Positions 13,890-18,018 of a DNA stretch of 20,000 nt are shown piece by piece. Positions within the stretch are counted from its first letter, which is position 1, and each line of letters opens with the position of its first letter. The notes under the pieces are model-generated. The model saw only the letters and a program-made list of their open reading frames with translations, searched no databases and was not told the origin of the DNA. The translations under genes and the position numbers were made by a program. The DNA is taken from sequence record SRR22947727_1968; one strand, given 5' to 3'.

Positions 13890-16796
13890 CTAGCGCAACG
13901 CCGCATCGCAGCGCCCACAGACACCGGCGTGACTGTGTTGACCCACATCGGGCAAAATTTTCCAACACCGCTGGCATTTTTCACCGCTGGCTTTCGCAAA
14001 GGACACCGCCACCCCATCTGTGTCTTCTAAGACAAAGGCAGCCTCTGGCGCGGCTTGGGTCGAAATTTCAATGCCAGATGTGATACACAAATCGGCAAAA
14101 CTCACAGATTTCAACACCTCGGCCACCTCTGCGGATACATAGACCACGGGTGCGGCCTCAAGGCTGGAGCCGATGTTCTTTTCACGCCGCTGCACTTCCA
14201 GGGCGCCGGTCACCACACGGCGCACCTTGCGGATGCTGGACCATTTCTCAGCCAAATCCGGATTGGACCAGCGCGATGGGGTCTGCGGCATGTCTTGCAA
14301 ATGCACCGAACTGCCCTCCTCCGGGTGGCGCTCCAGCCAAACCTCTTCCATCGTGAAGGTCAGAACCGGCGCCAGCCAAGTCGTCAAACGGTGATAGAGA
14401 ATATCCAAAACCGTCCGAGCCGCCCGGCGTTCTGCGGTATCGCCATCGCAGTAAAGCACGTCTTTGCGAATATCGAAGTAGAATGATGACAGATCCACGG
14501 TCGCAAATTGGAACAAGGCTTGGAAAACCCCTTGGAAGTCATAGGCTGAGTAGCCTTCCCGGACGGTGGCATCCAATTGCGCCAAACGATGCAATACCCA
14601 TTGCTCCAGCTCAGGCATTGCCTCAGGCGCCACCTGATCTGACGGGGTGAAATCCGCCAGAGAGCCCAGCATAAACCGCATTGTATTGCGCAACCGTCGA
14701 TAGCTATCGGCCACACCTTTGAGGATCTCCGGCCCAATCCTAAGATCACTGGTATAATCGGATTGCGCCACCCAAAGACGCAAAATATCCGCGCCATATT
14801 GCCGGGTCACATCCTCAGGCGAAACGGTATTGCCGATGGATTTGGACATCTTCATGCCCTTTTCATCCAGCGTGAACCCATGGGTCAACACGCCCCGATA
14901 AGGCGCGCGGCCCTGGGTGCCGCAAGATTGCAGCATTGAGGAATGAAACCATCCTCGATGTTGGTCTGTACCTTCAAGATAGAGATCGGCCAAGCCATCA
15001 TCAGACCCATCTGCCCGGTCGCGCAACACAAAAGCATGCGTGGATCCGCTGTCAAACCAAACGTCCAAGATGTCGAACACCTGCGTGAAGTCCTCGGGTG
15101 CCACAATCCCGCTCAAGAAGCGCTCTTTCGCGCCCTCTTTATACCAAGCATCGGCTCCTTCGGCCTCAAAAGCCTCTAACACGCGGGCATTAACCTCTTC
15201 ATTGCGCAGCAGATAATCGTCATCCGTGGGCAGGCTGCCGTTTTTGGTAAAACACGTCAAAGGCACGCCCCAGGCGCGCTGGCGCGACAACACCCAATCG
15301 GGCCGGGCTTCGATCATGGAATACAACCGATTGCGCCCGGTCGGCGGAGTCCAAGTGACAAGCTCATCAATGGAGGTCAGCGCCCGCTCGCGGATGGTCT
15401 TGCCATAGGTGTCTTGCCCATCGTTGACCGGCTTGTCGACGGCAGCAAACCATTGCGGCGTATTGCGATAGATCACAGGCGCCTTAGAGCGCCAGCTGTG
15501 CGGGTAGCTGTGCTTGATTTTGCCACGCGCCAACAAACCACCCACTTCGGCCAGTTTCTCAATAATCGCGCCATTGGCGTTGCCCTCTTTGCCATTGGGC
15601 TTGAGGATCGCCTTGCCGCCAAAGAATGGAAGATCCGCGCGAAAACGCCCATCTTCCATCACGTTATAGGTGATCACCTGCTCCAACATGCCCAAGTCGC
15701 GGTAGAGCTCAAACTCTTCCATGCCGTGCGAGGGTGCACAATGCACAAATCCCGTGCCTTCACTGTCGGTGACAAAATCAGCCGCGCGGAAGTCGCGAAT
15801 ATCATCCCATTCGCCCGCGCCGCCTTCAACACCGTGCAACGGGTGAAGCAGCTGAATCTTCGCCAAATCCTCGGAGGTGATATCACAAAGGCGGCGATAC
15901 ATCGACGGATCAAGACGCGCACGGCCCAAGACATCTTCGGCCAGTGCATCTGACAAAATAAACCGCTCGCCGATCCGGGCCCAGCATTCCTCAGGCCGGC
16001 CGATCACCTCATACAGCCCGTAGGAAATTCCCGCGCCATAGACCACCGCCTTATTCGACGGCATGGTCCAGGGCGTGGTGGTCCATATCACAACTTTCGC
16101 ACTGTCTAATGTCGCATCACCCGTGCCAACCACTTGAAATTTCACCCAAACGGTGAAGCTTTCCTTGTCGTGATATTCCACCTCAGCTTCCGCCAGGGCC
16201 GTTTTCTCCACAGGCGACCACATCACAGGTTTTGACCCTTGATACAGGGTGCCATTCATCAAGAATTTCTGAAATTCCGCCGCGATCACCCGTTCCGCAT
16301 GAAAATCCATCGTCAAATACGGATTTTCCCATTTGCCGGTGATGCCCAGTCGCTTGAATTCATCGCGCTGGATATCGACCCAACCGGCGGCAAATTCGCG
16401 GCATTCCTGACGAAATTCGACCAAAGGAACCGCGTCTTTATCGCGGCCTTTTTTGCGGTATTTCTCTTCTATTTTCCACTCAATCGGCAGCCCGTGACAA
16501 TCCCAACCGGGGATATAGCGCGCATCTCTGCCCATCATTTGCTGCGAGCGCACCACCATATCTTTGAGGATCTTATTGAGCGCATGACCAATGTGCAGGT
16601 TGCCATTGGCATAGGGCGGCCCGTCATGCAGGGTAAAGCTCTCACGCCCTGTTTTCTCGCGCAATCGGTCATAGATGCCGATCTCTTCCCAACGGGCCAG
16701 CCATTCAGGTTCGCGTTTTGGCAGGCCGGCACGCATGGGGAAATCTGTCTTAGGCAGATTGAGAGTGTCTTTGTAGTCAGGTGTTTGCTCGGACAT
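13890..16796 (-). CDS. ileS: Isoleucine--tRNA ligase, bacterial type 1
   Basis: [60 protein letters not shown] and C-terminal Zn finger CQRC..CGRC. Start ATG 16796 ([15 protein letters not shown]). Confidence 0.98.
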
Positions 16797-16824
16797 ATCT
16801 CGTCTCATCTTTAATAAACTGGGG

Positions 16825-16885
16825 AAAGGCGGCGCGGTGGGCTCCAACGCCTTTGGCCCGGCAGCTGCATTGTCACAGTGCCGGG
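16825..16885 (-). promoter_or_regulatory. Two tandem hairpins in the ileS leader (putative attenuator)
   Basis: Hairpin 1: CCCGGCA-CUG..CAG-C-UGCCGGG (16885-16857), enclosing the leader stop codon. Hairpin 2: AAAGGCG..CGCCUUU (16854-16825). Confidence 0.6.
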
Positions 16886-16920
16886 GATATAATTCGTAGA
16901 ATGATCAATATCCGTTCCAT
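16873..16920 (-). CDS. Putative Ile-rich leader peptide of ileS ([15 protein letters not shown])
   Basis: ATG GAA CGG ATA TTG ATC ATT CTA CGA ATT ATA TCC CCG GCA CTG TGA: 5 Ile in codons 4-11, ending 76 nt upstream of the ileS start. Confidence 0.75.
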
Positions 16921-16929
16921 CTCGCGCCG

Positions 16930-16958
16930 GTTATAGGCCCCTCTGTGCCGCTGCACAA
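16930..16958 (-). promoter_or_regulatory. Putative sigma70 promoter of the ileS leader
   Basis: TTGTGC (16958-16953), 17-nt spacer, TATAAC (16935-16930). The leader ATG follows 9 nt later. Confidence 0.65.
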
Positions 16959-17001
16959 CTGGCTTGACGCAGAGAGTTTGCCGCAGGGCAGAAAATTCCC
17001 T

Positions 17002-18018
17002 TCAGCGCGTCCGATCCGACAGGAAAACGCCCAAGAGTGCCCGCTTCATGAGGCCCGTCACACTGGGGAATGCCCCCGGCTGAAAGGCAAGGGGGCGGCA
17101 CAGCTGCATGGCTGCAACCCCCACCCGCGCGGTCAAAGCCCCATTGATGACACCTTCGCCGAATTTTCTGGAAAACTTGGCCAAAACAGACCCTCCCGCA
17201 ACCGACCCAATGAGATCATCACCAATGGCCACAGCCCCCGTTGCAATCACATGGGCCAAGACCAGACGCGTCAAACGCCAACTGCCAAAAAATCCTGAAC
17301 GGCCGCCATATATCTCAGCAATCTTGCGGATCATGCGCAGATTGGTGACCAGAGTTGCGACCACATCCACCAAGGCGAGCGGCATCAAAGCGGTGAGGGT
17401 CGTGACCTGCCGGGCCGCGGCCTCGATCGTTTGCTCGGCCAAACGGTCCAAAGGCGATAGCAGCGCGCGTTCTGCCGCCTCCATCATCCCATCGGCATCA
17501 AATATGTCTGGTTTTTGCTCCGAAAAACGGGCCATCTGCCAACGCAGCTCCTCCCGGCCACGGTAGAGTGCCTCAAGCTCGGCACAGACAAACTGCGCCT
17601 CGGCCAGTACCCCAGACCCGCGCGCAGCGCTGGCCCTTTGCTGAATTTGATCAATCCGCGTCAAACGGCGCAGGGCCGAGATTTCCTTGCCGACCAAGAC
17701 CAAGGTCGCAACGCTGGCACCCACCAATAAGGCAACGGCCAACCACCCTAGGGCGGGAAAGCGCACGATCAGCCCGGTCAGAAATTCCCAGATGGCCAGG
17801 CACATACTCATCACCACAAAGGCGCTGAAAAACCCAAAAGCCCAGCGCAGCGCCCGGCCAGGACGGCGACCGAGCAGCAGCGTTGTCGCCTGAAAACTGG
17901 TCGAGCGCTGCCCCGCATCCAGCCCCGCCTCAGGGATGGGAGGGGCGGTTTCCGGCGTCACATCTTGATCTGATGCCGGCAGCTCTACAACCAAAGGCGC
18001 ATTGCGTTTCTCATCCAT
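17002..18018 (-). CDS. ycjF: YcjF-family (UPF0283) membrane protein
   Basis: Two N-terminal TM helices, TALMPLALVDV, LRMIRKIAEIYGGR, and KFGEGVINGALTARVGVAAMQLCRPLAF. Downstream of ycjX. Confidence 0.9.
   Translation of the reverse strand: MDEKRNAPLVVELPASDQDVTPETAPPIPEAGLDAGQRSTSFQATTLLLGRRPGRALRWAFGFFSAFVVMSMCLAIWEFLTGLIVRFPALGWLAVALLVGASVATLVLVGKEISALRRLTRIDQIQQRASAARGSGVLAEAQFVCAELEALYRGREELRWQMARFSEQKPDIFDADGMMEAAERALLSPLDRLAEQTIEAAARQVTTLTALMPLALVDVVATLVTNLRMIRKIAEIYGGRSGFFGSWRLTRLVLAHVIATGAVAIGDDLIGSVAGGSVLAKFSRKFGEGVINGALTARVGVAAMQLCRPLAFQPGAFPSVTGLMKRALLGVFLSDRTR

Follow-up and report, generated by a model that had tools for sequence, protein, structure and literature searches.

A conserved leader ORF with an invariant Arg-Ile codon pair upstream of ileS in Rhodobacteraceae and other Alphaproteobacteria, a candidate isoleucine-responsive regulator

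In a 20,000-nucleotide (nt) stretch of DNA from sequence record SRR22947727_1968, the whole of which is referred to here as the window, the gene for isoleucyl-tRNA synthetase, ileS, is preceded by a short open reading frame (ORF) rich in isoleucine codons that runs into one hairpin and is followed by a second. Judged by the genomes compared below, this element is conserved in the Rhodobacteraceae and in many further Alphaproteobacteria. Its anatomy, its conservation, the covariation of its stems, its codon pattern, and its link to isoleucine-related genes were observed directly. It is the conservation, and not the single sequence of the window, that raises the element above chance. The leader is real and strongly conserved, and it is most likely regulatory. 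We consider it likely that it acts as an isoleucine-responsive cis-regulator of ileS, and on balance we lean, with less assurance, toward a cis-acting sensor of charged tRNA-Ile controlling this gene. The particular switch outlined below, in which a waiting ribosome would allow read-through and a ribosome reaching the stop codon would cause termination, is put forward tentatively.

In the window, the element lies on the minus strand in the 205-nt gap between a DUF697 gene, which ends at 17002, and ileS (Table 1). The identity of the synthetase gene is supported by its orthologue in the nearest genome, which scored 783 bits against TIGR00392 (cutoff, 621). A sequence-only reading of this DNA had placed the ORF, both hairpins, and a C/U-rich tract correctly. 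Its count of five Ile in eight consecutive codons was also right, the 15-codon ORF having five Ile in all, at codons 4 to 11. The 5' arm of hairpin 1 is formed by the last codons of the ORF, and the stop codon is inside its loop. As for the two hairpins that had been proposed, the first was unusually stable when folded alone (-18.5 kcal/mol; z = -3.68; equalled by 2 of 200 shuffled sequences), whereas the second on its own was unremarkable (-10.5 kcal/mol; z = -1.15 in the register 16854 to 16825), and the register shared by the family is shorter. The fold of the whole intergenic region was ordinary (z = -0.65; equalled by 53 of 200 shuffles). A search of positions 16400 to 17400 against Rfam 15 with E values up to 10 returned no T-box match and two unrelated matches far below their gathering scores. 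At seven related loci, no T-box or other Rfam family matched the element at E values up to 1. The curated amino acid leader families of Rfam (Leu, Thr, His, Trp, and Phe leaders) had no match in the window or at these seven loci.

Conservation was assessed first within the family. A search for the N terminus of IleS in 41 related genomes yielded 30 loci, 21 from the window's own family and 9 from other families. An ORF with at least three Ile in eight codons was located 75 to 125 nt before ileS at 20 of the 21 own-family loci, and one of the nine other loci was flagged for an Ile-rich ORF in this set. The order was sampled with 301 genomes, 296 of them in this family, and the 150 best-scoring matches listed were reduced to a single genome per genus, which gave 58 further genera. 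A homologous ORF preceded ileS in all 58 genera. It contained at least three Ile in eight codons in 48 of them, and in the remaining 10 the same ORF had two or three Ile. The consensus of the leader peptide in the family is M-x(4-7)-[AL]-I-I-I-R-I-[IT]-x-P-A-L-stop, and the heptamer CGAATTA was found in 81 of the 89 ileS upstream regions in the set at that stage. Scanning a collection of named genomes with the pattern gave at least 120 stretches, 80 of which were turned into loci. Among these listed loci, ileS followed 60 to 200 nt downstream in 73, and the genera represented include Sulfitobacter, Ruegeria, Roseovarius, Leisingera, Roseobacter, Tritonibacter, Gemmobacter, and Celeribacter. 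The earlier guess at the Rhodobacterales was therefore right. The same reading had called for an Ile-rich small ORF and stem covariation upstream of orthologous ileS genes; the ORF was found at the 20 of 21 and 58 of 58 loci just described, and both stems covary.

The covariation was evaluated in an alignment of 72 of 79 distinct sequences (L008, L022, L024, L039, L067, L072, and L077 were omitted), for which RNAalifold predicted both hairpins. Across 15 named pairs, 96.3% of the cells were paired, compared to 90.8% ± 0.4% in shuffled alignments. Eight of the 15 pairs had changed on both sides, and none of the five measures used was attained in the shuffles (0 of 500). Sliding one partner by one to three columns as a control reduced the paired fraction to 37 to 46%. 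In hairpin 1, 10 pairs were paired in 96.5% of the cells over the 72 sequences, with two-sided changes in 5 of them; in hairpin 2, the 5 outer pairs reached 95.8%, and the pair 67:85 appeared as C-G in 38, U-A in 24, and U-G in 7 sequences. It should be noted that the shuffle counts overstate the covariation because the sequences are related. The slid controls and the exchange of C-G for U-A in hairpin 2 (38 versus 24) do not depend on this kinship.

The sequence-only reading had described the leader peptide as Ile rich. What is conserved instead is a single pair of codons, CGA-AUU, at a fixed distance from hairpin 1, and outside the Rhodobacteraceae the ORF often has just one or two Ile. Among 77 distinct family leaders, the Arg codon was CGA and the Ile codon ATT in all 77, with zero synonymous variants, and the next base was always A. 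The order of the core is CGA-AUU-A, 4 nt, and CCCGG, which opens hairpin 1 and is paired with an equally invariant CCGGG. Hairpin 1 started exactly 5 nt past AUU in every one of the 77 leaders. From ribosome geometry and the spacers of frameshift sites, a hairpin base is at the mRNA entry when a codon about 5 nt upstream occupies the A site. When AUU occupies the A site, the 5-nt gap would therefore bring hairpin 1 up to the mRNA entry. This fixed spacing fits the proposal of the sequence-only reading that a stalled ribosome spares hairpin 1 and one reaching the stop codon melts it.

Other codons of the ORF were less constrained. The 77 leaders had a mean of 4.0 Ile in 15.6 codons, and at position -2 Ile was encoded by ATT in 34, ATC in 24, and ATA in 4 of them. 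This synonymous variation of Ile codons argues for selection on codon meaning. The stop codon followed seven codons past CGA in 74 of 77 leaders and was TGA in 71. The conserved start, the fixed stop, and the synonymous Ile variation point to translation of the leader ORF. In the window, the ORF uses codons that are rare there, namely, ATA twice, CTA, and CGA; in 10 long ORFs of the window, some of which may be spurious, ATA accounted for 15 of 240 Ile, CTA for 12 of 514 Leu, and CGA for 21 of 376 Arg codons.

Several features suggest that this translation would be leaderless. A TATAA[C/G] box was present in 70 of the 77 leaders and a near variant in 4 more. The box ended 6 to 11 nt (mode, 7) before the first in-frame ATG in these 74 leaders; L060, L077, and L087 had no recognized box and hence no distance. 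In relatives, -35-like words of the TTTAC, TGGAC, or TTGTG type were found 17 nt upstream of the -10-like box. Between this box and the leader ATG, there is no room for a Shine-Dalgarno sequence. Because the ATG follows so closely behind a conserved -10-like box, the leader mRNA probably starts with no or almost no 5' untranslated region. The boxes TTGTGC and TATAAC of the window are accordingly regarded as its putative promoter. A simple sigma-70 promoter scan of the region reported zero promoter-like sites and did not call these boxes. The stretch was found in 19 runs, 11 of which are recorded as RNA, in all cases as assembled contigs. Contigs in four runs bridge the upstream gene, the leader, and ileS; such contigs reveal neither RNA ends nor transcription.

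To follow the element beyond the family, the class was sampled with 151 genomes, one per family, of which 134 had an IleS match, and the ileS upstream regions of the best 80 additional genomes were taken. CGAATTA was found in 27 of these 80 regions, and in about 20 of the 27 there was a short ORF ending in R-I-x-x-P-x-x-stop together with a hairpin, often with just one or two Ile. A first covariance model that included hairpin 2 (R1) was too family specific, with matches in 7 of the 151 class genomes, and was replaced by a model of the core (R2) built from 29 sequences. With a threshold E value of up to 0.05, R2 gave 66 matches in 48 of the 151 genomes. After cross-reading of the coordinates by hand, 26 matches were assigned to positions before ileS (1 of them ahead of ribF-ileS), 26 matches at 25 loci were directly upstream of a gene for an ACT-like protein of about 95 residues, and 14 were elsewhere. 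About one in three of the sampled alphaproteobacterial families thus has the core. Hairpin 2, which was seen in the Rhodobacteraceae, is outside this class-wide core.

The ACT-like small protein family was found in 32 of the 151 class genomes at 33 places. Its genes were preceded directly by an R2 match at 25 of the 33 places and by an R1 match at 1 more. The proteins share the motif C-F-x-V ... D-P-G-x-M-P-R-V-L-E-x-F-A-K-R-G-L-V-P and resemble the ACT domain found in small subunits of acetohydroxyacid synthase only weakly and below threshold (PDB 2fgc; E value, 0.19). The Pfam family ACT_AHAS_ss was matched with an E value of 0.006 in 3 of 10 members, and no Pfam family scored above threshold. 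At five ACT-like loci (L328, L330, L331, L334, and L094), the leader ORF has no stop codon in the loop, is about 30 codons longer, and shares 17 to 20 nt with the beginning of the ACT-like gene, which suggests translational coupling. The gene behind the ACT-like gene is a DUF4743-NUDIX gene in five families (L307, L309/L092, L320, L328, and L094); in other families, it encodes a pyridoxal phosphate-dependent enzyme (one family), a HisRS-like protein, or an alpha/beta hydrolase or nitroreductase.

In three named species of Azospirillum and in two metagenome-assembled genomes, the element was found twice in tandem before a gene resembling that for threonine ammonia-lyase (NF005600 with an E value of 6e-100, below its cutoff; PALP domain). 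Copy 1 is leaderless-like, close behind a promoter-like TTGACC box, and copy 2 has its own GGAG ribosome binding site (Shine-Dalgarno sequence) and encodes a 12-residue peptide. The element, which had been proposed as a regulator of ileS, is thus also associated with ACT-like and threonine ammonia-lyase-like genes. The products of its neighbors are IleRS, an enzyme of the type that opens the isoleucine pathway, and the ACT-like protein. Together with valS and leuS of the nearest genome, before which no cognate leader ORF was found, they provide the best evidence that the signal would be isoleucine.

Further observations concern the genes around the leader. Many Rhodobacteraceae ileS genes (L031 to L088) open with ATGTGCGCCGA (M-C-A-D) after a conserved AAAGGACGCC, the rest of the N terminus being variable; ileS in the window's genus opens with ATGTCCGA instead. 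The shared first codons may reflect an RNA-level constraint at the start site. In the window and the two nearest genomes, the ileS frame is open for about 35 codons upstream (16796 to 16900), into the region of the leader ORF. A frameshift or fusion of the leader ORF into ileS was rejected: in the close relatives L003 to L007, an in-frame TAA lies between them, so a fusion product is not conserved. At four loci (L115, L158, L107, and L156), where ribF is directly before ileS, CGAATTA is within the last ribF codons (...A-R-R-I...), and two of them, L115 and L158, have a hairpin across the stop codon of ribF. The arrangement may be accidental, may represent this sensor incorporated in ribF, or may indicate an origin of the leader ORF in the 3' end of ribF. 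The last of these, a leader ORF as a relic of ribF, was set aside since several loci carry a complete ribF plus a separate leader ORF.

Table 1. Coordinates of the leader element and ileS in the window and of element-associated features at other loci
Feature	Locus	Start	End	Strand	Remarks
-35-like hexamer TTGTGC	Window	16953	16958	-	17 nt upstream of -10-like box
-10-like hexamer TATAAC	Window	16930	16935	-	Ends 9 nt ahead of ORF ATG
Leader ORF	Window	16873	16920	-	ATG 16920..16918, 14 further sense codons, TGA 16875..16873
CGA-AUU-A heptamer	Window	16890	16896	-	Arg and Ile codons 9-10 plus following base
Hairpin 1	Window	16857	16885	-	16885-16876 pairs with 16867-16857; loop 16875-16868
Hairpin 2, family register	Window	16831	16851	-	16851-16847 pairs with 16835-16831; window also permits 16825-16854
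C/U-rich, G-poor spacer with weak U-rich tail	Window	16809	16830	-	Downstream of hairpin 2
ileS (isoleucyl-tRNA synthetase)	Window	13890	16796	-	Start ATG 16796 conserved among relatives
ACT-like gene	L094	1209	1496	-	
ACT-like gene	L307	1593	1907		
ACT-like gene	L309	1618	1986		
ACT-like gene	L313	1591	1893		
ACT-like gene	L320	1626	1931		
ACT-like gene	L321	948	1274	-	
ACT-like gene	L324	1178	1450	-	
ACT-like gene	L328	1589	1882		
ACT-like gene	L330	1171	1458	-	
ACT-like gene	L331	1589	1888		
Tandem element copies, Azospirillum	L220	about 6330	about 6620		Also in L200, L245, L251, and L261

From the features described above, we infer a transcription start, translation of the ORF, a stall, a direction of control, and an output step, which can be combined into the following tentative switch. 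Transcription would start at or a few bases from the leader ATG, and a 70S ribosome would load at the 5' end with no need for a Shine-Dalgarno sequence. The Ile codons of the ORF, several of them rare, lead to CGA-AUU, and with AUU in the A site hairpin 1 would be at the mRNA entry, where a step past AUU would have to unwind three of its G-C pairs. When Ile-tRNA is scarce, the ribosome would pause on the Ile codons, and hairpins 1 and 2 would remain folded. When it is plentiful, the ribosome would unwind hairpin 1 and finish translation of the ORF on reaching the stop codon within the loop. This would briefly release the 3' arm, which could pair downstream, and in the window such pairing would create an extended stem around hairpin 2 beside the U-rich tail. 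Deprived of its 5' arm, hairpin 1 is predicted to pair there through its 3' arm at 16866-16862 with 16821-16817 and at 16859-16857 with 16824-16822. This state would lower read-through into ileS by intrinsic termination in the window's genus and by Rho or another route where the U-tract is missing. Isoleucine starvation would lead to raised IleRS, a direction of control that was derived from other synthetase genes.

A number of findings weigh against this reading. Only 7 of 71 leaders had a U-tract (at least five T in eight) immediately after hairpin 2, and 6 of these 7 belong to the window's genus; the U-rich tail of the window is weaker than this criterion, and a simple terminator scan of the region returned zero terminator-like sites. 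The terminator by which classical attenuation is defined is thus missing behind hairpin 2 in all but these seven leaders. The extended stem of the window (-18.3 kcal/mol; z = -0.35) was no better than shuffled sequences, and hairpin 2 alone, as mentioned, is unremarkable. In 50 of 71 minimum-energy folds, the 3' arm of hairpin 1 found its partner past hairpin 2, a count uncontrolled for the C-rich composition. Predicted accessibility of the ileS ribosome binding site was alike across states in two sets of partition-function models (0.466, 0.493, and 0.465 for 76 sequences; 0.497, 0.491, and 0.500 for 71 sequences), and hiding of this site was rejected as the output step. At the five ACT-like loci with run-on ORFs, a stall should lower expression of the ACT-like gene, i.e., the sign there would be the opposite, which makes the direction of control insecure. 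One own-family locus, the sole exception mentioned above (L008, a low-GC member of the window's genus), has ATA in place of the ATG and TGA in place of CGA while both hairpins are kept; either the element is decaying in this relative or its assembly is faulty. Finally, the full invariance of CGAAUUA and CCCGG:CCGGG, wobble positions included, exceeds what a hungry codon needs and could mark a binding site.

These points leave room for a broader reading, which we regard as possible though somewhat doubtful, in which CGA-AUU-A, 4 nt, and the CCCGG:CCGGG hairpin form a new ribosome-read switch of Alphaproteobacteria or bases that are read by a trans-acting factor. There, a single Ile codon would be decoded slowly at just the spacing that brings the hairpin against the mRNA entry of the ribosome, and whether the hairpin stays intact or is unwound would be the signal, with neither a terminator nor hiding of the ribosome binding site. 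The corresponding isoleucine regulon would comprise ileS, the gene for the ACT-like small protein along with the DUF4743-NUDIX genes, and that for threonine ammonia-lyase.

Rho-dependent termination or polarity, with the position of the leader ribosome setting how much C-rich RNA is accessible to Rho, appears unlikely as an account of the element. Its appeal comes from the spacer between hairpin 2 and ileS, which in 71 leaders had 34% C and 19% G, with C exceeding G in 64 of them. The window also has no intrinsic terminator, C/U-rich tails follow the element in Azospirillum too, and Rho was proposed by earlier authors for leader peptides without terminators in Actinobacteria, according to passages of PMC1262725. 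However, the median length of the spacer is just 43 nt, below the size of typical Rho loading sites, and no way was found for a ribosome about 60 nt upstream to shield it. Moreover, the C-richness may do no more than leave the ribosome binding site free of structure.

An attenuator of the classical four-segment design, as in trp or pheST, is, in our estimate, quite improbable. It would require a stalled ribosome to cover the 5' arm of hairpin 1, so that pairing of the hairpin 1 3' arm with the hairpin 2 5' arm (2:3 pairing) blocks hairpin 2 as a terminator, and a ribosome at the stop codon to let hairpin 2 form. The stop codon does separate segment 1 from segment 2, an arrangement shared with the trp leader, and a 4-bp core of the 2:3 pairing (columns 53 to 56 with 65 to 68) can be formed in most of the 72 aligned sequences. 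The helix is not kept beyond these four pairs, though, and its columns were paired in 69.2% of the cells versus 67.5% in shuffles, with 86 of 500 shuffles attaining its covariation score. Hairpin 2 is without a U-tract in 64 of 71 leaders and is not in the class-wide core, and the 5-nt gap suggests, from the geometry given above, that a ribosome stalled on AUU would spare hairpin 1.

We give little credence to a trans-acting factor (a protein, IleRS itself, or an RNA) that binds the CGAAUUA-4 nt-CCCGG hairpin and leaves the ORF a secondary role. Such a site would agree with the absence of synonymous changes in CGA and AUU and with the five basal pairs of hairpin 1, for which no covariation was observed in more than 100 sequences. 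The motif CGAATTA-4 nt-CCCGG was also confined to one occurrence per genome in three of four family genomes and two in the fourth (zero for the reversed control). On the other hand, the conserved start, the fixed stop, and the synonymous variation at other Ile codons favor translation, and no T-box or other Rfam family matched. The sole candidate for such a factor, the ACT-like protein, was rejected, as it was found in neither of two Rhodobacteraceae genomes searched.

Control of mRNA stability is very unlikely. This explanation supposes that the AU-rich single strand before hairpin 1 is an RNase E-type site which, together with the 5' end, is shielded by a waiting ribosome. An AU-rich island is found next to a stable stem within GC-rich RNA, and AU-rich sites are preferred by RNase E of Rhodobacter in the account given in part of PMC6238624, but the AU-richness follows directly from the Ile codons. 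A chance ORF with chance hairpins and no function, in keeping with the ordinary fold of the intergenic region and of hairpin 2 alone, can practically be dismissed, since the element, with its covarying stems and fixed geometry, recurs in many families and no fewer than 60 genera.

Little is known about how aminoacyl-tRNA synthetase levels are controlled in Alphaproteobacteria, which lack the T-boxes of Firmicutes. If the isoleucine-responsive reading is true, the element would be a widespread solution to IleRS control in the marine Roseobacter group and beyond. It is a candidate RNA family missing from Rfam, would give an uncharacterized ACT-like protein family a link to isoleucine, and may be an example from nature of sensing that needs no more than a single codon set at a constant distance from a hairpin.

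Among known systems, pheM-pheST of Escherichia coli has a leader-peptide attenuator ahead of a synthetase gene. Passages of PMC1262725 cite this control of pheST and describe predicted leader-peptide attenuators of trpS and leuS in Streptomyces. The element resembles these in the order of a cognate-codon ORF and hairpins before a synthetase gene and in a presumed stall upon tRNA shortage. It differs from them in its target, ileS, in an apparently leaderless ORF, and in the missing U-tract terminator in 64 of 71 leaders; furthermore, an invariant Arg-Ile pair is placed 5 nt from the hairpin, and the antiterminator pairing is without covariation support. T-box leaders, which control ileS in Firmicutes and Actinobacteria according to the same passages (PMC1262725), share the gene and presumably the signal, tRNA-Ile charging. 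In contrast to them, the element has no Rfam match and no conserved bulge for binding the tRNA acceptor end, and its proposed reader is the ribosome and not a tRNA. With Rho attenuators of the tna type, it shares a C-rich, G-poor tract after the leader ORF, which is short here.

Within the Alphaproteobacteria, an "ileS leader CDS (CCNA_03934)" of Caulobacter crescentus was derived from ribosome profiling and used as a negative control (PMC4117421). As a small translated coding sequence on an alphaproteobacterial ileS leader, it is a candidate counterpart of the element; the main text of that paper only names it, giving no sequence, codon content, or mechanism. The earlier statement that there is no experimental description in this lineage thus holds in that no characterization was found, but has to be amended by this named entry. 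Apart from PMC4117421, full-text searches of the literature turned up no account of a leader peptide for ileS or ilvA in Alphaproteobacteria, and supplements and a 2004 comparative survey of attenuators may hold predictions. Leader-peptide attenuation as such is represented in the class by the trpL attenuator of Sinorhizobium meliloti (PMC6614838, in part), and an alphaproteobacterial ilvB leader peptide is mentioned in a passage of PMC1273637. Unlike the element, both govern biosynthetic operons, and trpL, as that portion of the text has it, uses a terminator.

The element is best read as a form of leader-peptide attenuation with the invariant core as its novel trait, and a further parallel is found in mycobacteria. 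There, cys genes are preceded by small leaderless ORFs rich in cysteine codons, for which the part of PMC4633059 that describes them proposes a role in attenuation. These ORFs are leaderless, as the ileS leader probably is, and like it they are first in their operon and conserved, with cognate codons near the end and no evident terminator. The phylum, the amino acid, and the target are different, and the element in front of ileS adds a covarying hairpin that holds the stop codon and an invariant motif.

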